From an uncultured Anaerolineales bacterium (GTDB lineage: Bacteria > Chloroflexota > Anaerolineae > Anaerolineales > UBA11858), in the NCBI GenBank assembly GCA_964618295.1, contig CAZTWV010000001.1, forward strand, positions 92,863-156,862: a stretch of DNA of 64,000 nt, written 5' to 3'. This document shows, one piece after another, positions 17,053 to 56,909 of the stretch. The notes beneath the pieces are model-generated. The model did no database searches and was not told the DNA's origin. It saw only the letters and a list, made by a program, of their open reading frames with translations. Position 1 is the stretch's first letter. Each line of letters opens with the position of its first letter. Both the position numbers and the translations under genes were made by a program.

Positions 17053-17057
17053 CCTGG

Positions 17058-17990: not shown

Positions 17991-18031
17991 CTGCTCTTCT
18001 CGTTTTACCTGCCTGGTTGGTTATCAGTTTC

Positions 18032-30716: not shown

Positions 30717-30741
30717 CAGTCAAAGGCTTGTTTGTTAAACT
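30713..30741 (+). promoter_or_regulatory. Putative sigma70-type promoter of the amidohydrolase gene (TTGACA-17 nt-TAAACT)
   Basis: A perfect -35 at 30713-30718, a 17-nt spacer, and TAAACT at 30736-30741. The ATG is at 30783. Confidence 0.45.
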
Positions 30742-30745
30742 TATA

Positions 30746-30756
30746 TTGTCTGACAA
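30746..30756. promoter_or_regulatory. Candidate operator, TTGTCTGACAA (reverse complement of site 30702-30712)
   Basis: It lies immediately downstream of the putative -10. The extended match TATATTGTC-N-GACAA is shared with 56792-56806. Confidence 0.55.
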
Positions 30757-30782
30757 ATTTCTACACAGGACCAAAGGCGAGG

Positions 30783-32174
30783 ATGATTATGCCCACACTT
30801 CTTGTCAAGAACGCCCAGATCTTAGTAACAATGGATGAACACCGCCGTGAGATTGAAAACGGTGGTCTTTTTGTTAAAGACGGCTTTATTGAACAGGTCG
30901 GGCCCACGGATCAACTTCCGAAAAAGGCCGATAGAGTCCTGGACCTGGCTGGCCATCTGGTACTGCCGGGACTGATCAACACCCACCATCATTTTTATCA
31001 AACACTGACCCGGGTTGTTCCAGAGGCGCAGGACGCCAATCTTTTTCATTGGTTGAAAACCCTCTATACCATCTGGGCTCGGATGCAGCCAGAGGATATT
31101 CAGATTTCAACCAAAACAGCTCTGGCTGAACTGGCTCTTTCGGGCTGTACAACAGCATCCGATCACCTGTATTTATTTCCGAATGGCTCACGTTTGGATC
31201 ATGAAATTGAAGCTGCCCTTGAGATAGGACTTCGTTTGCATGCCTCCCGCGGTTCAATGAGCCTGGGAGAAAGTGATGGAGGTTTACCTCCTGACAGCGT
31301 GGTAGAAGATGAAGATTATATTTTAGAGGATTCCCGACGCTTGATTGAGACCTATCATGACAGCAGCCCGGGTTCGATGACCCAAATTGTGCTTGCTCCA
31401 TGTTCGCCGTTCAGTGTCACGGGTGATTTGATGCGTGAAAGCGCAGTTTTAGCCCGTGAATATGGGGTGCAGCTGCATACCCACCTGGCCGAGACGGAAG
31501 ATGAGATCGATTTTTGTATTGAAATGTTCGGGAAACGCCCTGTTGCCTACATGGAAGAAGTGGATTGGATCGGTCCGGATGTCTGGTTCGCCCATTCAGT
31601 CTACGTTAATGACCAGGAAATTAAAGTCTATGCTGATCACCATTGTGGTGTGGCCCACTGCCCGAGCTCAAATATGCGTCTGGCTTCCGGTGCAGCTCCG
31701 ATTCTGGATCTGCGGGCTGCCGGCGTTGATGTCGGGTTGGGCGTGGATGGATCCGCCAGCAATGATGGATCCCATATGATTGAAGAGGCCCGTCAGGCGA
31801 TGCTTCTATCCCGCCTTCGGGCTGGAATGATGGGGGCTTCTCGCTCTGATGGAGGGGCTCAGCCGATTATGTCAGCCCGGCAGGTGCTGGAACTGGCCAC
31901 AATTGGCGGTGCTGCAGTCCTCGGTCGAGAGGATATCGGCTCCCTGGCAGCTGGAAAGGCAGCTGATTTTACGGCGATTAATTTAAACCGGATTGATTAT
32001 GCAGGTGCACTGCACGATCCAGTGGCTGCCGTACCGTTTTGTGCTCCGGTGAAAGTGGATTACACCGTAGTCGGAGGGAAAATGATTGTTAAGGATGGAC
32101 AGCTGATGACCGAGGATCTACCGGTCTTGATTGAGAACCACAACAAGGCTGCTCACAGGTTATTAAACGAATAA
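30783..32174 (+). CDS. COG0402-type amidohydrolase, 8-oxoguanine/guanine/isoxanthopterin-deaminase-like
   Basis: 'PGLINTHHHFYQTLTR', 'HTHLAETEDE', 'AHSVY', 'HCPSSNMRL', and 'GVDGSASND'. The start is set at the first ATG (MIMPTLLVKNA) rather than the TTG at 30732. Confidence 0.8.
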   Translation: MIMPTLLVKNAQILVTMDEHRREIENGGLFVKDGFIEQVGPTDQLPKKADRVLDLAGHLVLPGLINTHHHFYQTLTRVVPEAQDANLFHWLKTLYTIWARMQPEDIQISTKTALAELALSGCTTASDHLYLFPNGSRLDHEIEAALEIGLRLHASRGSMSLGESDGGLPPDSVVEDEDYILEDSRRLIETYHDSSPGSMTQIVLAPCSPFSVTGDLMRESAVLAREYGVQLHTHLAETEDEIDFCIEMFGKRPVAYMEEVDWIGPDVWFAHSVYVNDQEIKVYADHHCGVAHCPSSNMRLASGAAPILDLRAAGVDVGLGVDGSASNDGSHMIEEARQAMLLSRLRAGMMGASRSDGGAQPIMSARQVLELATIGGAAVLGREDIGSLAAGKAADFTAINLNRIDYAGALHDPVAAVPFCAPVKVDYTVVGGKMIVKDGQLMTEDLPVLIENHNKAAHRLLNE

Positions 32175-32209: not shown

Positions 32210-34012
32210 ATGACTTTGGAAAAAATCAGCACCGAAACAAGAAATCTCGTAGATGTGGCCATGGGCCGCACAACTGCGGATCTGCTGTTTCAGAACGGGA
32301 TCTGGGTTTGTGTTCAAACCGGTGAGTTCATTCCCGGGACGGATATCGCTGTCTCTGGCGATCGGATTGCTTTTGTGGGTCCTGATGCCAGTCATACGAT
32401 TGGAGATGAGACCGAAGTGATCGACGCCCGGGGAAAGTATCTGGTCCCTGGTTTGCTGGATGCCCATATGCATATTGAATCCGGGATGGTAACGATTACG
32501 GAGTTTGTCCGGGCAGTGGCCCCCCGAGGGACGACCGGGATGTTTGTTGATCCCCATGAGATAGCCAATGTATTCGGGTTGGAAGGTGTTCGGCTGATGG
32601 CAGACGAAGCGGAAAACCAGCCTGTTCATGTCTGGGTTCAGGTTCCCTCCTGTGTGCCGTCTGCACCGGGATTAGAAACACCGGGATCGGCAATCGGTCC
32701 CGAGGAAGTTGAAGAAGCAATGACCTGGGACCGAATTATCGGCCTGGGAGAAATGATGAATTTTCCGGGTGTGTTTACTAGTGATCAAAAGATGCACGAT
32801 GAAATGGCAGCAACCCGGGCTGCCGGGAAAGTGATCGGCGGGCATTATGCTTCTCCGGATCTGGGACTGCCGTTTCATGGATATGCCGCCGGCGGCCCGG
32901 AAGATGACCATGAAGGAACCCGGAAAGAAGATGCTGCCGCCCGCGTCCGGCAGGGGATGAAAGCCATGCTACGGTATGGTTCAGGTTGGCTCGATGTAGA
33001 AGCCCAGATTAAAGCCATTACGGAAGATGGACTCGATTCCCGTCATTTTCTGCTCTGCACGGATGATTCCCATTCTGAGACCCTGGTCAATGACGGTCAT
33101 ATGGACCGTGTTCTGCGTCATACCATCGGGTTGGGCGTGGATCCGATGCTGGCGATTCAGATGGCAACCATTAATACTGCAGAGCATTTCGGAGTTGCCC
33201 GAGATCTGGGCCAGATTGCCCCCGGCCGTTTTGCCGATGTGCTGATCGTTGAAGATTTGCAGGATTTCCGGCCGGAGCTGGTGCTGGCACAAGGTCAGGT
33301 GCTGGCCCGGGATATGAAATGGGAGATTGATCTTCCAGCTTATACCTACCCGGATTGGGCAGCTGACTCCATTCACCTCCAGCGCCCGTTGACAGCGGAG
33401 GATTTCCGCCTTCCTGTCTCATCAGAGCTCCAGGATGAGATATTAATGGCCCATGTGATTGGAGTGATTGAAGGGCAGGCACCTACCAAACATCTGCAGA
33501 TCCAGGTTGAGGCAGAAAATGGGGAAGTTCGAATCGATTTGGATCGCGATCTGGCGAAGATCGCACTTGTTGAACGCCACAAGGGGACCGGCGGAGTAGA
33601 GGTAGGCCTTGTTCAAGGATTTGGCTTTGAAGGAAAATGCGCGACAGGGACCACGGTAGCCCATGACTCCCACCATATGATTGTGGTTGGGACAGATGAG
33701 GAGCAGATGGCTCTGGCTGCGAATCATCTGGCAGAGATTCACGGCGGTCAGGTTGTGATCCAGGATGGAAAAGTGATTGGAGAAGTGGCCCTGCCAATTG
33801 CAGGCTTGATGTCCAATCAACGGGCAGATCTGGTAGCAGAAGAAGCGGCAACCGTCTTGGAGGGATTCAGGAATTGCGGCTGCACGATCGTAAATCCCAA
33901 TATGCAGTTGAGCTTGCTGGCCCTGGCAGTGATTCCGGCCCTCCGGATTTCTGATCTGGGGCTGGTGGATGTCGAGAAGTTTGAATTTGTACCCGTGCTG
34001 GAAAAAGAATAA
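32210..34012 (+). CDS. ade: Adenine deaminase (COG1001 family)
   Basis: 'PGLLDAHMHIESGM', ~600 aa, and the C-terminal domain motif 'AHDSHHMIVVGTD'. Confidence 0.85.
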   Translation: MTLEKISTETRNLVDVAMGRTTADLLFQNGIWVCVQTGEFIPGTDIAVSGDRIAFVGPDASHTIGDETEVIDARGKYLVPGLLDAHMHIESGMVTITEFVRAVAPRGTTGMFVDPHEIANVFGLEGVRLMADEAENQPVHVWVQVPSCVPSAPGLETPGSAIGPEEVEEAMTWDRIIGLGEMMNFPGVFTSDQKMHDEMAATRAAGKVIGGHYASPDLGLPFHGYAAGGPEDDHEGTRKEDAAARVRQGMKAMLRYGSGWLDVEAQIKAITEDGLDSRHFLLCTDDSHSETLVNDGHMDRVLRHTIGLGVDPMLAIQMATINTAEHFGVARDLGQIAPGRFADVLIVEDLQDFRPELVLAQGQVLARDMKWEIDLPAYTYPDWAADSIHLQRPLTAEDFRLPVSSELQDEILMAHVIGVIEGQAPTKHLQIQVEAENGEVRIDLDRDLAKIALVERHKGTGGVEVGLVQGFGFEGKCATGTTVAHDSHHMIVVGTDEEQMALAANHLAEIHGGQVVIQDGKVIGEVALPIAGLMSNQRADLVAEEAATVLEGFRNCGCTIVNPNMQLSLLALAVIPALRISDLGLVDVEKFEFVPVLEKE

Positions 34013-34016
34013 AACT

Positions 34017-34742
34017 ATGAGTGAAAACGATGTATCAAAAACAATCCATGAGCAGCTCAGCACCTTAATTGCTGAGACAGATTCTGGAGAAAGGCTTCCA
34101 TCGGAACCCAAGCTGGCGAAAAACCTGGGTGTTTCCCGGGCGACCCTGCGGGAAGCGATGCGAACTTTTGAAACCCGAGGCTTGCTGCAGAGGAAACAAG
34201 GTGTAGGAACGTTTGTAATCCATCCCACCCATGTCTTCGAGACCGGGCTGGAAAATTTGATGAGTCTGGAGAACTTGGCGGATCAAATTGGGCTGGATGT
34301 AGATATGGGCGAGCTGGTCGTCAAAGAAATTACTGCGGATGGGGATCTTGCAAAGACTCTCACCGTTCCGGAAGGTGAGCTCATACTCCAGGTAGCCCGC
34401 ACGATCCTGGCAGAAAACAGACCGATCGCGTATTTGGTCGATAATCTGCCGACGGATGTGCTGTCGGCTGATGAAGTTAATCAAAAATTCACCGGATCAG
34501 TCCTGGATTTGTTGATCACCCATGACGATATTCCCCTGACCAGTTCACGCTGTGATATCACAGCCATGGGAGCACCGCCTGAGATAGCCAGTGCGCTGGA
34601 TATCCAGCGGCGGGATCCGCTGCTGATATTTTCATCCAAACTGTACAACAATCAAGGAAGGATTATCGATTATTCTTTCAGCTATTTTATCCCCGGACAT
34701 TTTCGTTTTCATATTGTCCGGAGAATAGTCAGTCAAATTTAA
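34017..34742 (+). CDS. GntR-family transcriptional regulator, HutC/UTRA subfamily
   Basis: N-terminal wHTH 'LPSEPKLAKNLGVSRATLREAMRTFETRGLLQRKQGVGTFV' plus a ~150-aa UTRA-like effector domain. The start is at ATG 34017, just after the ade stop. Confidence 0.88.
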   Translation: MSENDVSKTIHEQLSTLIAETDSGERLPSEPKLAKNLGVSRATLREAMRTFETRGLLQRKQGVGTFVIHPTHVFETGLENLMSLENLADQIGLDVDMGELVVKEITADGDLAKTLTVPEGELILQVARTILAENRPIAYLVDNLPTDVLSADEVNQKFTGSVLDLLITHDDIPLTSSRCDITAMGAPPEIASALDIQRRDPLLIFSSKLYNNQGRIIDYSFSYFIPGHFRFHIVRRIVSQI

Positions 34743-34832: not shown

Positions 34833-35786
34833 ATGAGAAGTTTTGCTGGACGGAACATTATATCTTTGAAAAATTTTGAACGACGGGAATTCGAGCGTGT
34901 TTTGGAAGTGGCTGCTGAACTGGCACCCATCGCCCACAACCGTAAGAATGTTGATCTGCTGAAGGAAAAGACCATGGTGACGGCTTTCTATCAGCCTTCA
35001 ACCCGAACCCGACTCGCCCACGAAGCTGCCATGCTGCGGTTGGGCGGAAAAGTGACCGGATTCTCCGATGCAAAAATGACCCGGGCCGGTGACTTTTATA
35101 TGGAAACCATCAAGGATACCTTCAAGATGCTTGAGCACTACGGGGACGTGATTGTTATGCGTCACTTCCAGAAAGGCGCTCCAGCCGAAGCAGCCAAATG
35201 GACCAGCGTTCCGATCATTAACGGCGGTGATGGATGGGGTGAGCACCCGACCCAGATCCTGACCGACCTCTACACCATCTGGCAGGAAAAAGGGATCCTT
35301 GACGGTCTGCGCTGGGTGGCGGTTGGTGATATGCGGATGCGCACCATGCATTCCCTGGGGCACGCCCTGACCCAGTTTGACTGCCCGATCACCTTTATTT
35401 CTCCTGAAGATATGTCCCTTCCGGATGAGTACCGCGAAGACTTCAAACAGAACAGCTTGAACTTCACCGAGGGTGATGATGTCCGCGAAGTGATTGCTGA
35501 CGCAGACGTGATCCTGGTTGAACCGGTTGTCCAGCCTGATTACACCAAATCCCGCGACGAGCGTGATGGTGATGTCGGAATGACCCCGCCTGAATTCAAG
35601 ATAACCCGCGAGCTGCTGGAAACCAAAGCGAAATCCGATGCGGTTCTGCTGCACTCCCTGCCCCGCATGGACGAGATTCCTCCCGATGTCGATCAGACCC
35701 GGTGGGCTCGCTACTGGCAGGAAGGTTTCAACGGTGTTGTGATGCGGATGGCACTGTTGGCCCTGGTGCTCGGCGCCAAAGAGTAA
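34833..35786 (+). CDS. Aspartate-carbamoyltransferase-fold transcarbamylase with a non-canonical second-substrate site
   Basis: By eye it aligns along its full length with E. coli-type PyrB: 'QPSTRTR', 'NGGDGWGEHPTQ', 'GDMRMRTMHS', and 'LHSLPRMDEIPPDVD'. The Asp-binding 'TRVQKER' is replaced by 'EPVVQPDY'. Confidence 0.8.
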   Translation: MRSFAGRNIISLKNFERREFERVLEVAAELAPIAHNRKNVDLLKEKTMVTAFYQPSTRTRLAHEAAMLRLGGKVTGFSDAKMTRAGDFYMETIKDTFKMLEHYGDVIVMRHFQKGAPAEAAKWTSVPIINGGDGWGEHPTQILTDLYTIWQEKGILDGLRWVAVGDMRMRTMHSLGHALTQFDCPITFISPEDMSLPDEYREDFKQNSLNFTEGDDVREVIADADVILVEPVVQPDYTKSRDERDGDVGMTPPEFKITRELLETKAKSDAVLLHSLPRMDEIPPDVDQTRWARYWQEGFNGVVMRMALLALVLGAKE

Positions 35787-35807
35787 GGTCGGTAGAAGAA
35801 GAAAACA

Positions 35808-35858
35808 CCAGTATGGAGCGGTTTCAAAGCACAATTTTTAGAGGCAGCTCCATACTGG
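35808..35858. repeat. 12-bp perfect inverted repeat CCAGTATGGAGC / GCTCCATACTGG (27-nt loop) in a 271-nt intergenic region
   Basis: Read directly: arms at 35808-35819 and 35847-35858. No U-run follows. Confidence 0.5.
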
Positions 35859-36057
35859 AGTAAGACAACTTAATGCTCAGTTTTATTCGTAGGCAAGAAA
35901 TTCAAATCAACCACAAAACCCCGGAGAGCTGAATTCGAAGCACGGAAGCCGATCATAAACCAATCCAGCACCGGTTAATAATTGAACAATAATACCAATC
36001 CTGCAAAACGCTGAGCTGTATTCCAAATAGATCTTATCTAATCAGAAGGAGATAAAT

Positions 36058-37038
36058 ATGATTTCCGATTTACGCGGTCGAGATTTAATCAGCGACCTTG
36101 ATTTTTCCAAAGAAGAAGTAGAAACCATTCTGGAAGTTGCCTGGGATCTTAAGAAAAAGCGGGCTCTTGGCGAACCCCATGCTCTGCTGCGGGATAAAAC
36201 CCTCTCCATGCTTTTCTTCTTCTCCAGCACCCGGACCCGGGCTTCTTTTGAATCCGGCATGGCCCAGCTGGGCGGACATGCAGCTTTTATGGAAAGCCGC
36301 ACCACCCAGGTGTCCCACGGTGATACAGAGAAAGAACTCGGTGAAATTCTGGGACGGTATTTTGACGGAATTGCCATCCGACACGTTACATGGGGTGTTG
36401 GCAACCAGTATCTGAACAATGTTGCTTCTGCCTCCCGGGTTCCCGTGCTGAACATGCAGTGCGAAGTTTACCATCCCCACCAGTGCCTGGCTGACATTAT
36501 GACCATCCAGGAAAAGAAAGGGAAAGACCTGCGCGGGAAGAAGATTGTGGTCTCCTGGGCTTATGCTTCCTCTTATCTCAAACCGATCTCTGTGCCGCAG
36601 TCCCTGATCCTCCAGATGCCCCGCTTTGGTCTGGATGTCACCCTGTCCCATCCCCCGGAATTCAAATTAATGCCGGAGATCATGGAACAGGCTCAAGAAC
36701 AGGCTGATAAATACGGCGGTAAATTTGAGGTTGTCCATGATATGGAAGAAGGCTTCAAAGATGCTGACATTGTCTACGCCAAATCATGGGGTCCGCTGCT
36801 GACCACCCAGGATCCGGATGAGGGCAAGAAGATTCAGGATCAGTACAAAGATTGGATTACTGATTCCAGGAAGATGGCTCTGGCAGATAAGGATGCAATT
36901 TACATGCACCCGCTTCCCGCAGACAGGGATGTCGAAGTCACCAGTGAAGTGATGGATGGACCGCAGTCCGTGGTCTTCGATCAGGCCGAAAACCGTATGC
37001 ATGCTCAGAAAGCCGTCATGGCTCTGACCATGCGCTAG
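36058..37038 (+). CDS. Ornithine-carbamoyltransferase-fold transcarbamylase with a non-canonical second-substrate site
   Basis: 'SSTRTRASFE', 'HPHQCLADIMTI', and the C-terminal 'VVFDQAENRMHAQKAVMA' are OTCase-like. The ornithine loop DxxxSMG reads 'AKSWGPL', and HCLP reads 'HPLP'. Confidence 0.8.
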   Translation: MISDLRGRDLISDLDFSKEEVETILEVAWDLKKKRALGEPHALLRDKTLSMLFFFSSTRTRASFESGMAQLGGHAAFMESRTTQVSHGDTEKELGEILGRYFDGIAIRHVTWGVGNQYLNNVASASRVPVLNMQCEVYHPHQCLADIMTIQEKKGKDLRGKKIVVSWAYASSYLKPISVPQSLILQMPRFGLDVTLSHPPEFKLMPEIMEQAQEQADKYGGKFEVVHDMEEGFKDADIVYAKSWGPLLTTQDPDEGKKIQDQYKDWITDSRKMALADKDAIYMHPLPADRDVEVTSEVMDGPQSVVFDQAENRMHAQKAVMALTMR

Positions 37039-37047
37039 GAGAAACCA

Positions 37048-38004
37048 ATGACAAAAGAAAAGAAAGTTGCTGTAGTTGCCATTGGCGGTAATTCGCTGAT
37101 CAAGTCCAAGCAGCACCAGACCGTGGAAGATCAGTACCAGGCGGCTAAAGAAACTGCAGCCCACCTGGTGGATATGATCGAAGCGGGCTGGGATATCGCG
37201 GTGGGGCACGGGAACGGCCCCCAGGTTGGATTCATTCTGCGCCGGTCGGAAATTGCCGCCAAAGTGGAAGGAATGCACGAAGTACCGCTGGATGTCTGCG
37301 GTGCGGACAGCCAGGGTGCGATTGGTTATGCTCTGCAGCAGAACCTGCACAACGAGCTTTCTGACCGGGGTATTGACAAATCAGTTGCGACCGTGATCAC
37401 CCAGGTCCGGGTGGATGCTGATGATCCTGCGTTCCAGGAACCAGCTAAACCGATTGGGACGTTCATGGAAGAAGACGAAGCCATGCGCCGCAAAGAAGAG
37501 ATGGGATGGAATGTGGTTGAAGATGCCGGACGCGGCTGGCGCCGGGTTGTGGCTTCCCCCCTTCCGGTCGAAATCATGGAGCTGGAAGCGGTTAAAGCCC
37601 TGATTGCATCCGGAACGATCACCATCACCGTCGGCGGGGGAGGAATCCCCGTCATAAAAACAGATGCTGGCTTGAAGGGAACAGCAGCCGTGATTGATAA
37701 AGACTTCGCTTCCTCCTTCCTGGCAACTGAAATGGATGCTGATCTGCTGCTGATCTCCACGGCTGTGGAAAAAGTGGCCCTGAATTTCGGGAAACCGGAT
37801 CAAAAAGATCTCGATGTGATGACGGTAGCGGAAGCAAAACAGTACCTCGATGAGGGCACTCATTTTGCAAAAGGCTCCATGGAACCGAAAATCCGGGCTA
37901 TTGTCCGCTTCCTGGAGAACGGTGGAAAAGAAGCGATAGTGACCGACCCAAAGAATATTGGGCGAGCTTTGAAAGGTGAAACGGGAACAAAAATAATTCC
38001 CTGA
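37048..38004 (+). CDS. arcC: Carbamate kinase
   Basis: 'VVAIGGNSL', 'HGNGPQVG', and 'GGGGIPV'; 318 aa. It starts 9 nt after the preceding transcarbamylase gene. Confidence 0.9.
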   Translation: MTKEKKVAVVAIGGNSLIKSKQHQTVEDQYQAAKETAAHLVDMIEAGWDIAVGHGNGPQVGFILRRSEIAAKVEGMHEVPLDVCGADSQGAIGYALQQNLHNELSDRGIDKSVATVITQVRVDADDPAFQEPAKPIGTFMEEDEAMRRKEEMGWNVVEDAGRGWRRVVASPLPVEIMELEAVKALIASGTITITVGGGGIPVIKTDAGLKGTAAVIDKDFASSFLATEMDADLLLISTAVEKVALNFGKPDQKDLDVMTVAEAKQYLDEGTHFAKGSMEPKIRAIVRFLENGGKEAIVTDPKNIGRALKGETGTKIIP

Positions 38005-38201: not shown

Positions 38202-39494
38202 ATGAAGAAGAAAAACCTTTGGTTAGTGATCAGCATGTTGCTGATTGCCTCATTTGTCTTCACAGCCTGCCAGACAGCCCCCGTTGAAGAACCCGCGGAA
38301 GAAGCTGCTGAAGAGGCAGTTGTTGAAGAAGAGGCAGAAGAAGCAGTGGAGGAAGAAACAGAACCAGCCGCGGAAGGTGGACTGCAGATTCCTGACATTG
38401 AAGAAGGCAAGTTCAATGTTGCGATCGTGATGCTCAGCAACCATGATGACGGCGGCTGGTCCCAGGCTCAGTGGGAAGGAATTACCTACCTTGATGAAGC
38501 CATGGATGATGTTCACACCGCCTATATGGAATTGGTCGCCGAGGGCGCTGATTCCGAGCAGGTTTTCCGGGGTTTGGCCCGCAAAGGCTTTGACCTGATC
38601 TTTGGTGGGTCCTTTGGTTACATGGACTCCATGGAAGTCGTGGCAGAAGAATTCCCGGATGTGGGTTTTGTTCACATTTCCGGTTACAAATTCAACGGCA
38701 CGAACTTTGGCAATATGTTTGGCGAAATGGAAGTTATGAAGTACGTGGCCGGCATGGTTGCTGGAGCCCGAGCCAAGGCTGACGGCGTAGATCGTGTTGG
38801 TGGTATGGCCACTTTCCCGATTCCGGAAGAATTCCGTCTGTTCAATTCTTATGCACTTGGTGTGCAGGAAACCTGCCCCGACTGCGAAGTGGATATCCGC
38901 TGGATCTTCACCTGGCACGATCCGATTGTCGAGCGCGAAGGTTCTGATTCCCTCTTTGACACCGGCTCGCATGTGGTAATGACCGGTGCCGATACCCCGG
39001 CTCCTGCTCTGGCAGCTGCCGACCGGGAAGGCGTTTATGGAATCACCTATGACTGGGTTGGCTCCTGCACCATTGACGAGTGCCTGACTGCTCCGTACTG
39101 GGTCTGGGGACCTGTCTTTGAACGGATCACCAAAGAAGTTATGGCTGGAGAATATCCTTACACAGCTGATTATTTCGATGCCGTTTCTGGTGGTGTTGGA
39201 ATTTACGGCTTCATGGAAGGACAGGAACTGCAGCCCGGTGTGGCCAGTCTTCCCGAGGAAGATCTGGATAAGATCTGGGATGTTGTGAATGCTGCGAAAG
39301 CCGGCGAATTTGATCGTTTTGATGTCTTTGCCGGACCGATCATCGACAACCAGGGCAACGTGGTTGTTCCTGAAGGCGAGTTCATGACCCAGGCTGATAT
39401 TGACCAGTTCGCCCCCGGCGCACCTGGTTTTGAAGCTGAGTACGGCATGTTCTGGTGGAACGAGAATATCATCGCTGATCTACCTGATCTCTAA
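38202..39494 (+). CDS. BMP-family (Med/PnrA-like) ABC substrate-binding lipoprotein, probably for a purine nucleoside or base
   Basis: Signal peptide with Cys (VFTAC), the acidic tether 'EEPAEEAAEEAVVEEEAEEAVEEE', then a Bmp-like body. Confidence 0.8.
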   Translation: MKKKNLWLVISMLLIASFVFTACQTAPVEEPAEEAAEEAVVEEEAEEAVEEETEPAAEGGLQIPDIEEGKFNVAIVMLSNHDDGGWSQAQWEGITYLDEAMDDVHTAYMELVAEGADSEQVFRGLARKGFDLIFGGSFGYMDSMEVVAEEFPDVGFVHISGYKFNGTNFGNMFGEMEVMKYVAGMVAGARAKADGVDRVGGMATFPIPEEFRLFNSYALGVQETCPDCEVDIRWIFTWHDPIVEREGSDSLFDTGSHVVMTGADTPAPALAAADREGVYGITYDWVGSCTIDECLTAPYWVWGPVFERITKEVMAGEYPYTADYFDAVSGGVGIYGFMEGQELQPGVASLPEEDLDKIWDVVNAAKAGEFDRFDVFAGPIIDNQGNVVVPEGEFMTQADIDQFAPGAPGFEAEYGMFWWNENIIADLPDL

Positions 39495-39507
39495 ACCTCA
39501 CACAATT

Positions 39508-39545
39508 CCGGGTGGCCAGCACCAGCTGGCCACCCGGTCTTTTCT
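39508..39545 (+). terminator. Strong intrinsic terminator/attenuator between the SBP gene and the ATPase gene
   Basis: A 13-bp GC-rich stem CCGGGTGGCCAGC / GCTGGCCACCCGG with loop ACCA, followed by TCTTTTCT. Confidence 0.8.
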
Positions 39546-39601
39546 AGCAATTATTTTTTATTATGGAAACAGACTAGCTACTATAAACAAGATGGTGGAT
39601 T

Positions 39602-41152
39602 ATGAATAATCATCAAACAAATCCTGAGCTGGTTGTTGGAATGCAGTCAGTTACCAAACGTTTCCCAGGTGTGCTGGCAAATGACCGGGTAAACTTTAAT
39701 TTACGGAAAGGGGAAGTTCACGCTCTGCTGGGAGAAAATGGAGCCGGGAAAAGCACCCTGATGAATGTCCTGGCCGGTTTGTATAAAGCAGAAGCTGGAA
39801 AAATATTTGTTCATGGGAAACAGGTCAATTTTGCTTCTCCCCGGGAAGCTATTGAAGCCGGGATCGGCATGGTCCACCAACATTTTATGCTGGTACCCTC
39901 CCAGACTGTTACAGAAAATATTCTCCTGGGACTTGATGAACCGCGTTTCCGAATGCGTTTAAGTGAGTATGACGAACAAATTAAGGAAATTGCAGCCCGT
40001 TATGGTCTTCATGTGGATCCGGAAGCAAAAATCTGGCAGCTTTCCGTCGGAGAGCAGCAGCGGGTTGAAATCCTGAAAATGCTCTACCGGGGTGCCGATG
40101 TGCTGATTATGGATGAGCCAACGGCTGTTTTGGCTCCCGCAGAGATCAATGAACTATTCCAGACGCTGCGGAAAATGACGGACCAGGGGAAATCAATTGT
40201 CTTCATCAGCCATAAACTCCACGAGATCATGGAAATTGCGGACCGGGTCACAGTGTTGCAGAAAGGAGTTGTGACTTCGAGTGGGCTGGAAATAAAAGAT
40301 GTTTCCCGGGCGGACCTGGCGCGGTTGATGGTGGGACGGGAAGTTATTTTCCGGGTTGAGAAAAAGGCTGTTGAGACCGGAGATACAGTTCTGGAGGTTC
40401 AGGATCTTGAAGCAAGTAATGATAAAGGGATCCAGGCTCTGAACGGTGTTAGCCTGAATATCAAAGAAGGAGAAATTGTCGGTCTGGCCGGTGTGGCTGG
40501 AAACGGACAGAATGAGCTGGCAGAAGCTCTGGCCGGACTCCGGGAGGTCACGGGCGGAACGGTAATAGTCAATGATCGTGATGTTACCAATAAACCTGTC
40601 AAACTGGGAATTCGACACGGGATTTCATTGATCCCTGCTGACCGCACAGCGGTCGGTACAGCCCCTAACCTGAGCGTGACTGACAATGTGATCATGAAAA
40701 ATTATGATCAATCACCAATTTCAAAAGGATGGCGGATCCTTTCTTCTGCAGCCAATAGTTACGCTACGGACTTGAAAGAAGCTTACTCAATCATGGTCCC
40801 GACAATAGATACATCTGTCCGGCTGTTATCCGGAGGGAATTTGCAGAAAGTGATCCTGGCCCGGGAGATCTCCAGTGAGCCGAAATTTATGATTGCTGTT
40901 CAGCCTACCCGCGGCCTGGATGTGGGTGCGATTGAAGGCGTCCAGAAACTGCTGCTGGCTCAGCGGGAAAACGGCGCCGCAATCTTATTAATCTCGGAAG
41001 AATTGGAAGAGCTGTTAACCTTGAGCGACCGCATTTACGTCATCTATGAAGGTGAAATTATGGGTGAAGTGGATGACGGAGATATTGACAAGATCGGCCA
41101 GATGATGACTGGAACAACACTCCAGGAAATCGAATCAGAAGGAGTTAGTTAA
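39602..41152 (+). CDS. ABC transporter ATP-binding protein (duplicated ATPase, sugar/nucleoside type)
   Basis: 'GENGAGKST', 'LSVGEQQRVEI', 'MDEPTAVL', and a second half with 'GVAGNGQNEL', 'LSGGNLQKV', and 'ISEELEE'. Confidence 0.92.
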   Translation: MNNHQTNPELVVGMQSVTKRFPGVLANDRVNFNLRKGEVHALLGENGAGKSTLMNVLAGLYKAEAGKIFVHGKQVNFASPREAIEAGIGMVHQHFMLVPSQTVTENILLGLDEPRFRMRLSEYDEQIKEIAARYGLHVDPEAKIWQLSVGEQQRVEILKMLYRGADVLIMDEPTAVLAPAEINELFQTLRKMTDQGKSIVFISHKLHEIMEIADRVTVLQKGVVTSSGLEIKDVSRADLARLMVGREVIFRVEKKAVETGDTVLEVQDLEASNDKGIQALNGVSLNIKEGEIVGLAGVAGNGQNELAEALAGLREVTGGTVIVNDRDVTNKPVKLGIRHGISLIPADRTAVGTAPNLSVTDNVIMKNYDQSPISKGWRILSSAANSYATDLKEAYSIMVPTIDTSVRLLSGGNLQKVILAREISSEPKFMIAVQPTRGLDVGAIEGVQKLLLAQRENGAAILLISEELEELLTLSDRIYVIYEGEIMGEVDDGDIDKIGQMMTGTTLQEIESEGVS

Positions 41153-41153
41153 T

Positions 41154-42287
41154 ATGGCAGAAACCAGCCCTAAGGAATCTGCTTCAAAGTGGGTCTTTCC
41201 TTACCAAATCAAAATTGAAAATCGGGTAGAAAATCCACCTCGCTGGCTTTCACCGGTGTTATCCATTGCAGCAGTGATTGCTGCCCTGCTGCTGGGCGCA
41301 CTGGTGATCTGGGCCGGCGGCGGTGAAGCCTGGAGAATTTACACTCATATTGCCAAGAATTCATTTGGCAGTGTAGGAGTGCTGTCCGACACCATGGTGA
41401 AAGCAATTCCGCTGATGCTGGTCGGATTAGCCTGTTCGATTGCTTTCCGGATGAAGTTGTGGAATATCGGTGCTGAGGGGCAGTTTTTCCTGGGAGCATT
41501 TGGGGCCAGCATGGTTGTACTGCTTCCGATCCTTCCGGCTGATGCGCCTAAATGGCAGTTTATCATTGTCACCGCCCTGTTTGGTATGGCCTTTGGTGCG
41601 CTCTGGGGTTTTATACCCGGTTTCCTGAAAGCCCGCTACAACGTGAATGAAATCATTTCAACCTTGATGTTGAACTATGTAGCCATTGAATGGAATAACT
41701 ATTTTATCTATGGAGTATGGTCCGACATGGGGTTCCAGATGTCTCCCATGTTTCCCCGGAATTCCTGGCTGCCACGCTTATCCGATCTTGCCAAAATAAA
41801 CCCCTTTTTCGGAGGGTTGACAACCCACTTGGGGCTTATTTTCGCCATTGTTGCTGCGGTTATTCTCTGGGTGATTCTCAACAAGAGCCGCTGGGGTTAT
41901 GAAATTCGCCTGATTGGTGATAACCCCCGGGCTGCAGAGTATGCAGGCATTTCCATCAAGAAAAATATCATCCGGGTCATGATGGTTTCCGGTGCGCTGG
42001 CGGGTCTGGCTGGAATGTCAGAAATTATGGGTGTTGTCCACCGTTTACAGGGAGCAATTTCTCCCGGATACGGCTATACCGGCATCATTATTGCCTGGCT
42101 GGCTAAATTGAACCCTCTGGCTGTAATCCTGGCCTCCATCCTGTTTGGAGCTTTGATTTTAGCGGGCAGGGAAGTCCAACCATCAGGGATACCCACCTTG
42201 ATTCAGGGTTTGATCATGGTGGCCTTGATCGCCAGCGACTACTTTTTCCGGAACCGGGTCAGAATTATTAAACGGGTGGAGGGTTAA
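41154..42287 (+). CDS. ABC transporter permease (BMP/ribose-type)
   Basis: About 10 hydrophobic helices with the 'NIGAEGQ' motif typical of this permease family. It follows the ATPase gene by 1 nt. Confidence 0.88.
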   Translation: MAETSPKESASKWVFPYQIKIENRVENPPRWLSPVLSIAAVIAALLLGALVIWAGGGEAWRIYTHIAKNSFGSVGVLSDTMVKAIPLMLVGLACSIAFRMKLWNIGAEGQFFLGAFGASMVVLLPILPADAPKWQFIIVTALFGMAFGALWGFIPGFLKARYNVNEIISTLMLNYVAIEWNNYFIYGVWSDMGFQMSPMFPRNSWLPRLSDLAKINPFFGGLTTHLGLIFAIVAAVILWVILNKSRWGYEIRLIGDNPRAAEYAGISIKKNIIRVMMVSGALAGLAGMSEIMGVVHRLQGAISPGYGYTGIIIAWLAKLNPLAVILASILFGALILAGREVQPSGIPTLIQGLIMVALIASDYFFRNRVRIIKRVEG

Positions 42288-42289
42288 CT

Positions 42290-43261
42290 ATGAATTTGAT
42301 TATCATTCTAGCTTCCGGTGTCGCAACCGGGACAGTACTGCTCTATGCCACGGTAGGTGAAATATTCGCTGAACGATCCGGTATTTTGAACCTGGGTGTG
42401 GAAGGGATGATGCTGCTGGGAGCGATGACAGCTTATAAAACAGCAGCAGCCACAAGTAATGCCTGGTTAGGATTGCTGGTGGCGATGCTGGCTGCTGGTT
42501 TAGTGAGCCAGGTCCATGCCTTTATTACGATCACCCTTCAGGCTGATCAGGTGATCAGCGGTTTAGCCCTCAACTTTCTGGCGACCGGCATCAGCCTGGT
42601 GCTGGGAGAGGGTTTGACCAGCCTGCGGGATGTAGTTCCCCAGCTTCCGAAATATTCCATTATGGGACTATCTGAGATCCCGTGGATTGGCCAAATTTTG
42701 TTTACCAACCACAGCATTATGGTCTATATCGGCTATTTGTTTATCCCGCTGACCTGGTATTTCATAAACCGGACCCGGCCGGGGCTGCACCTGCGGGCTG
42801 TCGGAGAATATCCAGCGGCCGCTGATACTCTTGGTATTCGGGTTTATTTCCAGCGCTACCTTTATGTCTTTGTGGGTGGACTCCTGGCTGGTTTAGCTGG
42901 GGCAACTATCAGCCTCTCAATTTCTCCAGGATGGTTTGGAGCTTTGACTACCGCCGGACAGGGCTGGATTGCCGTTGGTCTGGTGATTTTCGCCCAGTGG
43001 AATCCGGTTCGGGCCGCCTTCGGGGCCTACACATTTGGTGCTCTCCGCCGGCTGGTTTTGGATCTCCAGGCACCAGCTGTGATCCTGGGAATCTCTAATC
43101 CATTTTTCTACAATGTGAATTACGGCTTTTTCCTGAAGATGCTGCCCTATCTCTTTACTGTTGTGTTCCTGGTGATAGGTTCCAGGGAAGCCAGACGGAA
43201 GCGGATTGGAACTCCGGCAGCACTTGGTTTGCCGTATATCCGGGGTCAGCGCGGTCTATAA
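42290..43261 (+). CDS. ABC transporter permease (BMP/ribose-type)
   Basis: 'NLGVEGMMLLGA' and a multi-TM profile. It follows the previous permease by 2 nt. Confidence 0.88.
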   Translation: MNLIIILASGVATGTVLLYATVGEIFAERSGILNLGVEGMMLLGAMTAYKTAAATSNAWLGLLVAMLAAGLVSQVHAFITITLQADQVISGLALNFLATGISLVLGEGLTSLRDVVPQLPKYSIMGLSEIPWIGQILFTNHSIMVYIGYLFIPLTWYFINRTRPGLHLRAVGEYPAAADTLGIRVYFQRYLYVFVGGLLAGLAGATISLSISPGWFGALTTAGQGWIAVGLVIFAQWNPVRAAFGAYTFGALRRLVLDLQAPAVILGISNPFFYNVNYGFFLKMLPYLFTVVFLVIGSREARRKRIGTPAALGLPYIRGQRGL

Positions 43262-45019: not shown

Positions 45020-45049
45020 TCAGAATAATTAAGGGTAGGGAGTAAGTTG

Positions 45050-45916
45050 ATGCAGGTATTTGATTTTATTCAGGTTGAGAGTGAGATCGAATTGTTCAAA
45101 GTTTTATCCAACAACAAGGCAAAAATTGTAGCCGGGGGAACAGATATTATCCCGCGGATGAGAAAAAGTACATTTTCGGCGGATATCCTGGTAGATATCC
45201 AGAAATTATCATCCCTGAAAAATATTACGAAAAATCAGGATAGGATTGAAATCGGAGCTCTGGTCACTCACCAGATGTTGATGGATTCGACGCTGATCCA
45301 GGATCATTTGCCTTCCCTGGCTGCTGCTGCTGAAAGTGTTGGCTGCATCCAGACCCGCTGCCGGGGCACCCTGGGAGGAAATCTAGCCAATGCATCCCCT
45401 GCTGGGGATACCATTCCGCCTTTATTGACTGTAGATGCAGACCTCGTCACTGGAAGTCAATCTGGTGAACGAGAAGTATCCCTGAGAAATTTCTTTTCCG
45501 GTCCCGGGCAAACAGCCCTGAAAGAGGGTGAATACATCAAGTACATCCGTTTTTCAGTATCTAAAGATGGTAGAGGGACTGGATTCCAGAAATTAGGCAA
45601 GCGAAAAGGAATGGCAATTTCTGTAGTGAATGCTGCTGCGGCTCTCGAGCTGAATTCAGCGGGAGAAATTAAGTCCGCTGCAGTTGCTCTGGGGTCTGTG
45701 TCCCCGACAGTGGTCCGCTGTCTGGAGGCGGAGGAGTACCTGCTCGGCAGGAAACCGACGGAAGATGTTTTCAACCAGGCTTCCGAGCTCTGCCGGGAGT
45801 CAGTTTCTCCCATCAGTGATGTGAGGTCGACAAACGAATACCGGAGACATGCGGTTGGGGTGCTGGCGTTCAGGGCCCTGGAACAGGCTGCATCCAGAGC
45901 AAATGATTTGAGGTGA
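45050..45916 (+). CDS. Xanthine-dehydrogenase-family FAD-binding subunit (CoxM/XdhB-like)
   Basis: 'AGGTDIIPRM', 'AAESVGCIQTRCRGTLGGNLANASPAGD', and a C-terminal CO-dehydrogenase flavoprotein domain ('SDVRSTNEYRRH'). Confidence 0.88.
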   Translation: MQVFDFIQVESEIELFKVLSNNKAKIVAGGTDIIPRMRKSTFSADILVDIQKLSSLKNITKNQDRIEIGALVTHQMLMDSTLIQDHLPSLAAAAESVGCIQTRCRGTLGGNLANASPAGDTIPPLLTVDADLVTGSQSGEREVSLRNFFSGPGQTALKEGEYIKYIRFSVSKDGRGTGFQKLGKRKGMAISVVNAAAALELNSAGEIKSAAVALGSVSPTVVRCLEAEEYLLGRKPTEDVFNQASELCRESVSPISDVRSTNEYRRHAVGVLAFRALEQAASRANDLR

Positions 45917-50803: not shown

Positions 50804-50884
50804 GTGAGGATGATCTTGGAGGTGAAACCCGGAAAATACTCGTTTTTGAGCGTTCCTTTTCAAAACTATTGTAAGGAGTAGATA

Positions 50885-52873: not shown

Positions 52874-52980
52874 AACATGAAGTAGATGCAGGCTGGTGCA
52901 GGTAGATCCATTGGATTTATTTGTGCTGGATCCCCTCCTCTGCCGCAAGGCTGGGGAGGGGACCCTGCAGATGTGAATGG

Positions 52981-53025
52981 CTGGAGCTTGGAAGCAATCC
53001 TGTTTCTGTGCTCCAGGGATTTTTC
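52981..53025 (+). terminator. Hairpin plus T-run between the SBP gene and the ATPase gene (attenuating terminator)
   Basis: CTGGAGC (52981-52987) / GCTCCAG (53010-53016) followed by GGATTTTTC. A second GC-rich hairpin, TCCCCTCC / GGAGGGGA, is at 52931-52962. Confidence 0.5.
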
Positions 53026-53055
53026 ATCAAATCTAACTAAAACAGGATAGAAAAA

Positions 53056-56863: not shown

Positions 56864-56909
56864 TTTGCCTTTTACAGGCTTGAAGAACTTAGTTCTAAAG
56901 GATAGTAAA

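Follow-up and report, generated by a model that had tools for sequence, protein, structure and literature searches.

Two divergent carbamoyltransferases, TC1 and TC2, together with the carbamate kinase (CK) encoded after them, appear to form an energy-conserving decarbamoylation module of anaerobic purine or urate degradation, a variant of the YgeW–YqeA step in reductive uric acid degradation (the 2,8-dioxopurine pathway); this is the reading towards which we lean, on the basis of gene identities, motif changes, phylogenetic placement and synteny. The trio would phosphorolyse the ureido groups of purine fragments, probably those of 2,3-diureidopropionate, and the resulting carbamoyl phosphate (CP) would be used to make ATP. 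Catabolic phosphorolysis of purine-ring ureido intermediates to CP and then ATP had already been proposed in a first-pass annotation of this DNA, and the idea is supported by the motifs, the synteny and the markers of the uric acid pathway described below.

The window, that is, the whole stretch of 64,000 nucleotides analysed, comes from an Anaerolineales bacterium (Chloroflexota), and all features given here by coordinates lie on its forward strand. The three reading frames were confirmed where the first-pass annotation had placed them: TC1 (317 aa) at 34833..35786, TC2 (326 aa) at 36058..37038 and CK at 37048..38004. Their description as fused into an operon holds strictly only for TC2 and CK, for which the reported 9 nt between stop and start codon was verified, whereas TC1 and TC2 do not abut but are separated by a 271-nt spacer. 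The spacer (fold z = -2.2) contains a hairpin with a 12-bp stem (35808..35858; sequence and fold) that is not followed by a T-run, and it has no Rfam match at or near the gathering score. Good Shine-Dalgarno sequences precede both TC1 and TC2. CK exceeds the TIGR00746 cut-off (381 versus 358) and is 52% identical to YqeA and 53% to YahI of E. coli; it is thus no nearer to YqeA than to YahI, which counts against a variant of the YgeW–YqeA step. Consistent with the earlier description, none of the pyrI, pyrC, pyrD, arcA, argG, argH and agmatine deiminase families is found among the ORFs of the window, which also encodes no third transcarbamylase.

Both transcarbamylases keep all CP-binding motifs and lack the motifs for aspartate or ornithine specificity. 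STRTR, the Arg105 equivalent, HPxQ and HxLP are invariant among orthologues of 79–95% identity, so both enzymes are probably catalytic. TC1 has the ATCase fold (Pfam OTCace_N and OTCace, E = 1e-43 and 9e-22), its best solved relative being the ATCase of P. abyssi (1ml4, E = 8e-67), against which an AF2 model (pLDDT 84.4) gives a TM score of 0.88, with the 80s and 240s loops modelled at low confidence. By its motifs the CP site is intact, and STRTR, HPTQ, GDMRMRTMHS and LHSLPRMDEI are all present as first described. The by-eye register of the aspartate-binding segment also proved right: HMMER and MAFFT alignments both place TRVQKER opposite EPVVQPD, such that T228-R229-V-Q231-K-E-R234 of E. coli becomes E-P-V-V-Q-P-D and the net charge of the beta-carboxylate-binding loop changes from +2 to -2. 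In the 80s loop, TRAGDFY stands in place of SLGKKGE, and thus the aspartate-binding residues Arg229, Gln231 and Arg234 and Lys83/Lys84 are all substituted; HPLP has become HSLP, and Arg167, which binds the alpha-carboxylate, is retained. Not only STRTR, the Arg105 and Arg167 equivalents, HPTQ and HxLP but also the remodelled loops TRAGDFY and EPxxQPDYT are invariant among TC1 orthologues. In the tree, TC1 is placed apart from canonical ATCases; it clears the cut-off of the ATCase model TIGR00670 (249 > 237) and falls below those of three other ATCase equivalog models. ATCase-like paralogues were named ‘pseudo-ATCases’ in 2013 (Barba et al., PMC4016543), and groups 2 and 3 of these resemble TC1 in being ATCase-II-like, with intact STRT and HPTQ, an altered HxLP and no RxQ. 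By motifs alone, TC1 has the group-3 pair HSLP and VxP (read V-Q-P) and lacks the group-2 motif GX[SC]. However, the context of group 3, which occurs in marine bacteria with a Na+ symporter, an asparaginase and a HyuC-like gene, is not seen here, whereas the neighbourhood of the group-2 protein of Nocardioides JS614, which adjoins a ygeW homologue, xdhABC and hyuA (PMC4016543), is of the same kind as that of TC1. In the reading that we prefer, TC1 is a second, uncharacterised ATCase-derived enzyme that would act on a ureido substrate.

TC2 carries STRTR and HPHQ, with AKSWGPL for DxxxSMG and HPLP for HCLP, as was noted from the sequence, and has a homologue of the Pro-rich loop. It is sister to the YgeW proteins (YTCases) of E. 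coli and E. faecalis with 82% bootstrap support. Of nine proposed substrate-site residues of YgeW, taken from PMC4581275, seven are present (Q98, Q160, S200, K203, K270, D334 and E344), and the Pro-rich-loop sequence of YgeW is shared as well; D124, C330 and K363 of YgeW differ, the last being Arg in TC2. By contrast, TC2 is only 35% identical to E. coli YgeW and 70 residues shorter, has HPLP rather than HCLP and lacks four YgeW insertions; the N-terminal helix, both the 120s and the 240s extension and the C-terminal helices of YgeW are missing. Against the curated YgeW models, with cut-offs of 453 and 500, it reaches no more than 207 and 197 bits. Indeed, TC2 misses every curated model tried, the nearest being that of AOTCase (269.7 bits versus 288). 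With the X. campestris AOTCase and other knotted transcarbamylases it shares the lysine motif ‘VYAKSWG’, the Glu92 equivalent and the Pro-rich-loop region, but it has neither the extended 80s loop with Trp77 nor Asn185 and Lys302, and it is encoded next to a carbamate kinase and outside any arginine gene cluster. The best reading of these sequence features is that TC2 would be a compact YgeW-type enzyme. Given this sister relationship and the large share of predicted YgeW substrate-site residues that TC2 retains, diureidopropionate-type intermediates are better candidates than oxalurate, which had been offered as an example; the acceptor substrates, once called not predictable from known motifs, are to that extent narrowed by kinship, while still being inferred.

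Directly 5' of TC1 lies a GntR/UTRA (HutC-type) regulator (33969..34742; Pfam GntR and UTRA), preceded by a member of the adenine deaminase family (32210..34012; TIGR01178, 500 versus 472.5; Amidohydro_1 and Adenine_deam_C) and by an amidohydrolase matching the 8-oxoguanine deaminase model (30732..32174; NF006055, 679 bits versus 532), the product of which would be uric acid. CK is followed by a BMP/PnrA-family ABC transporter comprising a binding protein, an ATPase and two permeases (38202..43261; Bmp, ABC_tran and BPD_transp_2), a second adenine deaminase-type gene (43265..45019; TIGR01178, 489 versus 472.5) and a xanthine-dehydrogenase-family enzyme with FAD, 2Fe-2S and Mo subunits (45047..48649; Pfam FAD_binding_5/CO_deh_flav_C, Fer2_2/Fer2 and Ald_Xan_dh_C/MoCoBD_1/MoCoBD_2), for which the best NCBIfam models, pucD and XdhA, both score under cut-off. 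Further downstream are a second BMP-family transporter (48729..54606) with two permeases, an ATPase and a 662-aa binding protein containing two Bmp stretches, a threonine-synthase-like PLP enzyme (54611..55849; PALP; TIGR00260, 170.8 versus 167.1), a 502-aa cysteine-synthase-like PLP enzyme (56865..58373) and a D-hydantoinase/dihydropyrimidinase (61070..62629; TIGR02033, 521 versus 393) that is 39% identical to E. coli HyuA. The threonine-synthase-like protein may carry out the final deamination. Its identification as a YgeX orthologue was rejected, since it scores far below cut-off in diaminopropionate ammonia-lyase models. SsnA, YgeY and a candidate ring reductase are absent from the window, which counts against the purine module.

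TC1 relatives are encoded in at least 581 species genomes, and TC1 and TC2 are 77–95% identical across hundreds of Anaerolineae species. The order TC1–TC2–CK predominates among the 80 related genomes covered: of the 80 best loci with a TC1 relative, 71 have TC2 after TC1, the exceptions being mostly contig ends or gapped matches, and 67 have CK after TC2. Purine deaminases, the GntR/UTRA regulator, purine/nucleoside-type transporters and xanthine-dehydrogenase genes recur as neighbours. Thus, the regulator is kept upstream of TC1 in 48/80 loci, the first adenine-deaminase-type gene in 43/80, the 8-oxoguanine-deaminase-type gene upstream of TC1 in 42/80 and the BMP/PnrA transporter in about 20/80, while the threonine-synthase-like gene lies near the trio in 33/80, often right after CK, and is followed by the cysteine-synthase-like gene in about 15 loci. 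Some genomes have genes for YgeY, SsnA, a D-hydantoinase and an F420-type reductase, all of them curated markers of reductive uric acid breakdown, interspersed with the trio. In 13 loci the gene immediately 5' of TC1 encodes a YgeY-family hydrolase (TIGR03526, 450 > 321), and in 11 of these it separates TC1 from the regulator; since TC1 is still present in these genomes, it is not simply a replacement of YgeY. Locus L080, one of those with the cysteine-synthase-like gene, additionally encodes SsnA (NF005540, 523 > 444), a D-hydantoinase (487 > 393; 41% identical to that of the window), an LLM F420-type oxidoreductase, an enzyme of a kind predicted for Chloroflexota clusters (PMC12507026), and XdhD/YgfM-like genes. 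SsnA is found within 10 kb in only 3/80 loci, which again counts against the purine module.

In the pathway that we propose, purines would be taken up via the BMP-type transporters and converted to urate by both deaminase-type amidohydrolases together with the enzyme of the xanthine-dehydrogenase family. The ring would then be reduced and opened twice to yield a diureido acid, with 2,3-diureidopropionate the likeliest; the genes for these steps adjoin the trio in certain genomes and, in the present one, presumably lie at another place. TC2 would use phosphate to release one ureido group as CP, TC1 would release the other, probably the 2-ureido group of 3-amino-2-ureidopropionate, and CK would convert each CP with ADP into ATP, CO2 and NH3, for a predicted yield of two ATP; the remaining diaminopropionate would be deaminated by a PLP enzyme. 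YgeW and YqeA were shown to form ATP from 2,3-diureidopropionate and ADP (bioRxiv 10.1101/2025.04.24.650524), and a further report describes cleavage by YgeW when phosphate is present (PMC12507026). As the two 2025 papers differ over the ureido group that YgeW takes off (PMC12990295), the division of labour between TC1 and TC2 cannot be assigned. One of the two proposes D-configured intermediates, a point against the purine module; ATCases, as opposed to this, use L-aspartate. In E. coli and C. sporogenes, a carbamoyltransferase and, directly after it, a CK are likewise encoded within a purine-degradation cluster, and some Anaerolineae trios are co-located with the same YgeY, SsnA, HyuA and XdhD-type genes. 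The Anaerolineae differ in that the second, ATCase-derived transcarbamylase is always present in the trio, that YgfK and a YgeX orthologue are lacking and that L080 has an F420-type reductase. The energy logic (ureido + Pi to CP; CP + ADP to ATP) is shared with the arginine and agmatine deiminase pathways (catabolic OTCase/PTCase and ArcC), from which the trio is distinguished by the lack of arcA, arcD, agmatine deiminase and the OTCase/PTCase specificity motifs.

A possible, though doubtful, explanation is that TC1 and TC2 serve two separate catabolic branches sharing one CK, TC2 acting on the urate-derived diureido acid and TC1 on an unrelated N-carbamoyl compound such as allantoate, oxalurate, or N-carbamoyl-beta-alanine or N-carbamoyl-beta-aminoisobutyrate from reductive pyrimidine degradation via hydantoinase/dihydropyrimidinase, a gene of which type is present in the window. 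The pseudo-ATCase of Rubrobacter (ureidoglycine carbamoyltransferase, UGTCase, Rxyl_2847, group 1) phosphorolyses in vitro one of the two ureido groups of the diureido acid allantoate (PMC4016543) and, like TC1, is ATCase-derived, belongs to purine degradation and is encoded next to a carbamate kinase. Furthermore, the YgeY-family hydrolase of the 13 loci may already serve the second ureido group, and the nearest TC1 relative outside Anaerolineae (P0245, 46% identical) has an unrelated gene context, so that substrates of the TC1 group are probably diverse. However, TC1 and TC2 are almost never apart, and the uricase, allantoinase, allantoicase and ureidoglycolate dehydrogenase families are absent from the window and L080, whereas UGTCase works in the oxidative (uricase/allantoinase) pathway. 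Moreover, the group-1 motifs HPLA and AIA/AIS/SIA (PMC4016543, Table 1) are replaced in TC1 by HSLP and EPVVQPD, and the CP-site residues Ser102*/Lys106* of the UGTCase 80s loop (PMC4581275) by TRAGDFY. It is improbable that TC1 and TC2 are a housekeeping divergent ATCase and OTCase/AOTCase, with CK running in reverse as a CP source. Such roles would suit their high conservation, the TIGR00670 match of TC1, the closeness of TC2 to the AOTCase cut-off and their labels in annotation pipelines (ATCase for TC1, OTCase/AOTCase for TC2), but RxQxER and Lys84 are gone from TC1, DxxxSMG and HCLP from TC2, and only Glu92 of four AOTCase markers is found in TC2. Three ATCase models miss TC1 and all curated models miss TC2, the neighbours are GntR/UTRA, deaminase, transporter, XDH-family and YgeY/SsnA genes with no pyr or arg genes, and a TC1-bearing genome (L072) also has a canonical OTCase (DVWASMG, HCLP). 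That TC1 is a non-catalytic protein, binding CP or a ligand and serving TC2 or CK in a regulatory or structural role, as its heavily remodelled second-substrate site, constant company of TC2 and low-confidence loops might suggest, is very unlikely given that its CP-binding and catalytic motifs are all invariant, that the remodelled loops are equally so, as for a specific binding site, and that a related pseudo-ATCase is active (PMC4016543). As a decarbamoylation module, the TC1–TC2–CK trio would represent a two-enzyme variant of a step that was reported in 2025 for the breakdown of uric acid by gut bacteria.

TC1, an aspartate transcarbamylase (ATCase)-like ORF (34833–35786, 317 aa), TC2, an ornithine transcarbamylase (OTCase)/YgeW-like ORF (36058–37038, 326 aa), and CK, a carbamate kinase (37048–38004), lie where the first-pass annotation placed them, and all the motifs it quoted for TC1 and TC2 were found in their sequences. 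Both transcarbamylases (TCases) contain the two TCase Pfam domains, and each of the two is preceded by an AGGAG-type ribosome-binding site. CK passes the curated carbamate kinase models, namely the arcC equivalog TIGR00746 (381 bits, cut-off 358) and the subfamily model NF009007 (407 bits, cut-off 266); it was rejected as a specific orthologue of YqeA, being 52% identical to YqeA and 53% to YahI. The proposal that the three genes are fused into an operon holds strictly for TC2 and CK alone, the latter starting 9 nt past the TC2 stop codon; TC1 and TC2 are separated by a 271-nt spacer (35787–36057). This spacer begins with a hairpin (35808–35858) that has a perfect 12-bp stem and is not followed by a T-run. 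A consensus scan found no intrinsic terminator on the + strand between TC1 and TC2, and no riboswitch or other known RNA emerged from Rfam scans of this spacer and of seven loci in which it is long. In related loci TC1 and TC2 lie anywhere from about 10 nt to more than 1400 nt apart, while the TC2–CK gap is short throughout. An internal promoter or a regulatory RNA not yet recognised could reside in the spacer. A third TCase is absent from the window, pyr genes are absent from both the window and the annotated related loci, and, as first reported, none of the window ORFs belongs to the pyrI, pyrC, pyrD, arcA, argG, argH or agmatine deiminase families.

TC1 aligns with ATCases over its full length, the best solved relative being that of P. 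abyssi (1ml4; E 8e-67), and its AlphaFold model (pLDDT 84.4; TM 0.88 on 1ml4) confirms an ordinary ATCase fold. Among curated models, TC1 scores above the cut-off of the ATCase model TIGR00670 (249, cut-off 237) and below those of PRK00856 (222 vs 263), PRK08192 (190 vs 512) and PRK11891 (185 vs 560). An exhaustive search of 1.84 billion cluster representatives supplied 43 full-length sequences, to which TC1 was aligned together with E. coli PyrB. Canonical ATCases share FxEPSTRTR, an 80s loop ending in (K)KGE(T/S)L, LK(Y/N)GRTV and R(I/V/L)QxERF, the last being found in every canonical representative aligned save P0301 (SVQKEFF). The TC1 clade reads FYQPSTRTR, TRAGDFY(M/Q)E(T/S), MRMRTMHS, which retains the Arg167 equivalent, VEPVVQPDYT, and HSLP in place of HPLP. 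TC1 keeps the alpha-carboxylate-binding arginine and the carbamoyl phosphate (CP) site, whose motifs STRTR, MRH (Arg105), HPTQ and HSLP are all present and invariant in orthologues. Missing from TC1 are the RxQxER motif of the 240s loop (TRVQKER reads EPVVQPD) and Lys84 of the 80s loop, together with Lys83 (SLGKKGE reads TRAGDFY). The register of the aspartate segment, originally read by eye, is the same in the HMMER (against 1ml4) and MAFFT alignments, and the alteration of the second-substrate motif is real in the comparison with PyrB and the 43 representatives. In E. coli numbering, the replacements are T228 to E, R229 to P, Q231 to V, K232 to Q, E233 to P and R234 to D. In ATCase, Arg229 and Gln231 of the 240s loop bind the beta-carboxylate of aspartate; the replacements thus bring the corresponding loop of TC1 from a net charge of +2 to −2. 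The remodelled segments are invariant across 35 orthologues (79–94% identical), which marks a constrained new site rather than decay. Beyond the Anaerolineae clade, identity of TC1 to the representatives drops from 65–69% to 46%, and the gene context of the 46%-identical representative is unrelated. A tblastn search of plasmids retrieved nothing but canonical pyrB genes at ~40% identity.

In a neighbour-joining tree (200 bootstraps) TC1 is found within the ATCase paralogues that lack the RxQ motif, apart from canonical ATCases (73% bootstrap). Such paralogues were named 'pseudo-ATCases' by Barba et al. 2013, who recognised three groups (PMC4016543). Like the ATCase-II-like paralogues in Table 1 of that study, TC1 has STRT and HPTQ, an altered H265–P268 motif and no R230-x-Q232. 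Group 1, which takes in the Rubrobacter ureidoglycine carbamoyltransferase (UGTCase) that phosphorolyses allantoate, is characterised by HPLA and AIA/AIS/SIA (PMC4016543), whereas TC1 has HSLP and VQP, and there is no allantoinase near it. Group 2 is represented by a Nocardioides JS614 protein with the motifs H[ST]LP and GX[SC], encoded next to a ygeW homologue, xdhABC and hyuA (PMC4016543); the neighbourhood of TC1 is of the same kind. Group 3, from marine bacteria, has HSLP and VxP (PMC4016543), and this motif pair is common to TC1 (HSLP, with V-Q-P at the place of RxQ). The literature searched reports no function for groups 2 and 3.

The best solved relatives of TC2 are, in order, P. furiosus OTCase, X. 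campestris N-acetylornithine TCase (AOTCase) and E. coli YgeW. In the OTCase alignment the ornithine loop DxxxSMG is replaced by AKSWGPL and HCLP by HPLP, in agreement with the first-pass annotation. These features have precedents, VYAKSWGAL standing at the former site in X. campestris AOTCase and VYPKSWAPY in E. coli YgeW. TC2 is 35% identical to E. coli YgeW. Its homologue of the Pro-rich loop, SSYLKPISVPQ, lies opposite SPSYGKPLSVPQ of YgeW. Three signature stretches are common to the two proteins: the Pro-rich-loop sequence, WAYASSYLKPISVPQS in TC2 and WAYSPSYGKPLSVPQG in YgeW, and two others that read NMQCEVYHPHQ and HPLPAD in TC2 vs NLQCDIDHPTQ and HCLPAD in YgeW. The second-substrate site proposed for YgeW comprises Q98*, D124, Q160, S200, K203, K270, D334 and E344, plus C330 and K363 (numbering and asterisk as in PMC4581275). 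TC2 keeps Q98*, Q160, S200, K203, K270, D334 and E344, while D124 is changed to Val, C330 to Pro and K363 to Arg. Unlike YgeW, TC2 has no N-terminal helix, no 120s and 240s extensions and no C-terminal helices, and it fails both YgeW equivalogs, TIGR03316 (197 bits, cut-off 500) and NF005538 (207 bits, cut-off 453). Indeed, TC2 fails every curated NCBIfam cut-off, including those of the OTCase models TIGR00658 (257 vs 281) and PRK00779 (264 vs 306) and of the AOTCase model (269.7 vs 288). Assignment to OTCases was rejected, since TC2 lacks DxxxSMG and HCLP, scores below the OTCase cut-offs and stands apart from OTCases in the tree. AOTCases are marked by Trp77 in an extended 80s loop, Glu92, Asn185 and Lys302 (PMC4581275). 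TC2 has an equivalent of Glu92 only, with no 80s insertion and no Trp, Lys for Asn185 and Glu for Lys302; moreover, AOTCase belongs to an arginine gene cluster, whereas TC2 has no arg genes nearby, and together with the sub-threshold score this led us to reject an AOTCase assignment too. In the tree, the TC2 clade is sister to two YgeW-type TCases (YTCases; 82%), and the pair joins AOTCase (85%). The catabolic context of YTCases, an adjacent CK and co-located ygeY, ssnA, hyuA or xdhD, is also present: CK is next to TC2 here and follows it in 67 of 80 related loci, of which 13 have a YgeY-family gene and three SsnA, and HyuA-like genes occur in the window and in one of those loci, L080. Knotted TCases combine an extended 120s loop with a trefoil knot formed by the Pro-rich loop; TC2 has the Pro-rich-loop homologue and a slightly extended 120s loop, and the AF2 model built from 34 close orthologues (pLDDT 60.8) is too poor for fold or knot analysis.

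The closest homologues of TC1 and TC2 (79–95% identical) belong to MAGs of Anaerolineales, Anaerolineae and Chloroflexota, in which annotation pipelines name them ATCase (TC1) and OTCase or AOTCase (TC2). Judging from the motifs, hundreds of Anaerolineae genomes almost certainly carry wrong names for the two genes. When one genome per species was scanned, at least 581 had a TC1 relative, and synteny was counted in the best 80 of these loci (77–93% identical to TC1). TC2 follows TC1 in 71 of the 80 and CK follows in 67, loci without TC2 or CK mostly representing a contig end or a gapped match. Upstream lie a GntR/UTRA regulator (48/80), an adenine-deaminase-type gene (43/80) and an 8-oxoguanine-deaminase-type gene (42/80); BMP-family ABC transporter genes are downstream in about 20 loci, and PLP enzymes resembling threonine synthase (ThrS-like) and cysteine synthase (CysK-like) are nearby in 33 and about 15, respectively. 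The binding protein of the window's second BMP-family ABC transporter (50885–52873, 662 aa) has two Bmp-domain stretches and looks like a tandem duplication or fusion. The ThrS-like and CysK-like genes, with a GT2 glycosyltransferase gene, accompany the trio in many genomes (window 54611–58373; 4462–7559 in L080, an Anaerolineae MAG locus). One TC1-bearing genome, L072, is atypical: a canonical OTCase (DVWASMG, HCLP) lies beside TC1, and there is no TC2 within 10 kb. At 6195–9746 and 10001–10954 of this locus, TC1 is transcribed divergently from the canonical OTCase, a ThrS-like gene and a CK-like gene (39% identical), a hint that a different partner TCase can serve TC1 and the ThrS-like enzyme. 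A subsequent homologue search yielded no contigs in common with the TC1/TC2 matches. Pfam annotation of the unexplained flanks of two further loci, L063 and L023, revealed no relevant domains. Some contigs whose TC1/TC2 genes are 87–91% identical to those of the window bear Heimdall names, namely L006 (a JABFGC/JABCTC-type record, Candidatus Heimdallarchaeota) and the cluster representatives P0020, P0170, P0189, P0195, P0199 and P0204 (Heimdallarchaeaceae), and L023, 79% identical to the window genes, was deposited as Candidatus Eisenbacteria; mis-binning of Chloroflexota contigs is the most likely reason in every case.

Two 2025 studies (bioRxiv 10.1101/2025.04.24.650524; PMC12507026), with a commentary on them (PMC12990295), established the reductive uric acid pathway. 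Urate is converted by XdhD to 2,8-dioxopurine, which is dearomatised by YgfK or UacX, and two ring openings by SsnA and HyuA give 2,3-diureidopropionate; one ureido group is phosphorolysed by YgeW, with YqeA turning CP into ATP, the other is hydrolysed by YgeY, and YgeX deaminates diaminopropionate to pyruvate (bioRxiv 10.1101/2025.04.24.650524; PMC12507026; PMC12990295). The two studies assign different ureido groups to YgeW, and one of them proposes D-configured intermediates (bioRxiv 10.1101/2025.04.24.650524; PMC12507026; PMC12990295). Chloroflexota SsnA clusters lack YgfK/UacX and have a luciferase-family, putatively F420-dependent enzyme instead (PMC12507026). L080 is a cluster of this type with the trio in its middle, the order being XdhD-like and YgfM-like genes, ThrS-like and CysK-like PLP enzymes, an LLM F420-type oxidoreductase, YgeY, TC1, TC2, CK, SsnA, a second xanthine dehydrogenase (XDH) and a D-hydantoinase. 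Its YgeY (TIGR03526, 450 > 321), SsnA (NF005540, 523 > 444; TIGR03314, 504 > 455) and D-hydantoinase (487 > 393) all exceed curated cut-offs. In 13 of the 80 loci a YgeY-family gene immediately precedes TC1, standing between TC1 and the GntR gene in 11 of these, and SsnA occurs in three loci (L080, L061 and L071); in most of the 80, SsnA, HyuA and the reductase are absent within 10 kb. Encoded in the window itself are a three-subunit XDH-family enzyme, two adenine-deaminase-type proteins, a hydantoinase resembling HyuA (39% identity to the E. coli protein) and an 8-oxoguanine-deaminase-type protein that would produce urate; SsnA, YgeY and an obvious ring reductase are absent from it. TC1 and TC2 reside in a purine-catabolic neighbourhood under a GntR-family regulator, with tight synteny and recurrent co-location with curated urate-pathway markers.

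The 8-oxoguanine-deaminase-like protein and a TRZ/ATZ-type amidohydrolase (24260–26242, minus strand, 660 aa) were rejected as SsnA (145–225 bits vs cut-offs of 444–455); the latter has a C-terminal extension of ~200 residues without a family match, is 28% identical to L080 SsnA and is kept in the closest relatives only. The ThrS-like protein was rejected as YgeX, having no tblastn match and model scores far below the cut-off, and no YgeX orthologue was found in any locus examined. A dense signalling set (10574–20002 and 29502–30617) comprises three Ser/Thr kinases, one fused to a PQQ-type beta-propeller, a PP2C phosphatase, an FHA protein and a DnaJ-VWA protein; of the kinases, one immediately precedes the purine cluster and keeps its synteny in the closest relatives. 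The dihydropteroate synthase (DHPS) at 62803–63678 passes the generic DHPS model, and its best NCBIfam model is Sul4, for mobile sulfonamide resistance (399 bits, E 2e-119, below the cut-off of 600). Since sul4 has been proposed to be mobilised from Chloroflexota folP, a Sul4-like score would fit such an origin.

TC1 and TC2 are probably catalytic, with new second-substrate sites. It is possible, though somewhat doubtful on balance, that Anaerolineae phosphorolyse both ureido groups of a urate-derived diureido acid, so that substrate-level phosphorylation yields two ATP per purine, TC1 being an ATCase-derived 2,3-diaminopropionate N-alpha-carbamoyltransferase with a charge-reversed substrate loop and TC2 a minimal YgeW. 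In the proposed mechanism TC2 would act on the diureido acid as YgeW does, TC1 would phosphorolyse the remaining ureido group, CK would harvest up to two ATP per purine, and the ThrS-like or CysK-like PLP enzyme would act in place of YgeX. TC1 keeps the alpha-carboxylate clamp and has an acidic site (Glu230, Asp236) in place of the cationic beta-carboxylate one, which would suit N-alpha-carbamoyl amino acids whose side chain is cationic or neutral, e.g. 3-amino-2-ureidopropionate. C. difficile gains no ATP per purine in this way and E. coli one. The same logic, from ureide and Pi through CP to ATP, is known from the arginine and agmatine deiminase pathways, UGTCase and YgeW–YqeA. Caveats to the mechanism are the YgeY-family gene alongside TC1 in 13 genomes, the published disagreement over YgeW, the D-configured intermediates proposed in one study, the lack of SsnA, HyuA and a reductase within 10 kb in most loci, and a CK that is no closer to YqeA than to YahI. 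The main rival is a two-branch scheme in which TC1 may act on a substrate different from that of TC2, such as allantoate, N-carbamoyl-beta-amino acids or oxalurate. A biosynthetic role, in which a divergent ATCase and a divergent OTCase would be supplied with CP by CK, is argued against by the loss of specificity motifs, the scores under curated cut-offs, the gene context and the canonical OTCase adjoining TC1 in L072. With its invariant CP site, TC1 is unlikely to be non-catalytic.

Both lineages have been met before, as pseudo-ATCases (2013) and in PF00185-positive Chloroflexota SsnA neighbourhoods (2025). New are the trio itself, in which an ATCase-derived TCase is obligately paired with CK and a minimal YgeW-like TCase, its retention across hundreds of Anaerolineae species and, by implication, double phosphorolysis. 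The current names constitute a clear systematic misannotation that skews metabolic reconstructions of pyrimidine and arginine synthesis. Finding which ureido group TC1 and TC2 each remove could help to settle the published disagreement over YgeW. Should the proposed mechanism prove right, the reach of the reductive uric acid pathway would extend from gut bacteria to a dominant environmental phylum, with a second CP-yielding step and a better ATP yield, and the pseudo-ATCase groups, orphans since 2013, would gain their first functional lead. TC1 would then represent a new enzyme activity, and purine fermentation would be an unrecognised energy source of a lineage that is among the most abundant in sediments and anaerobic digesters.
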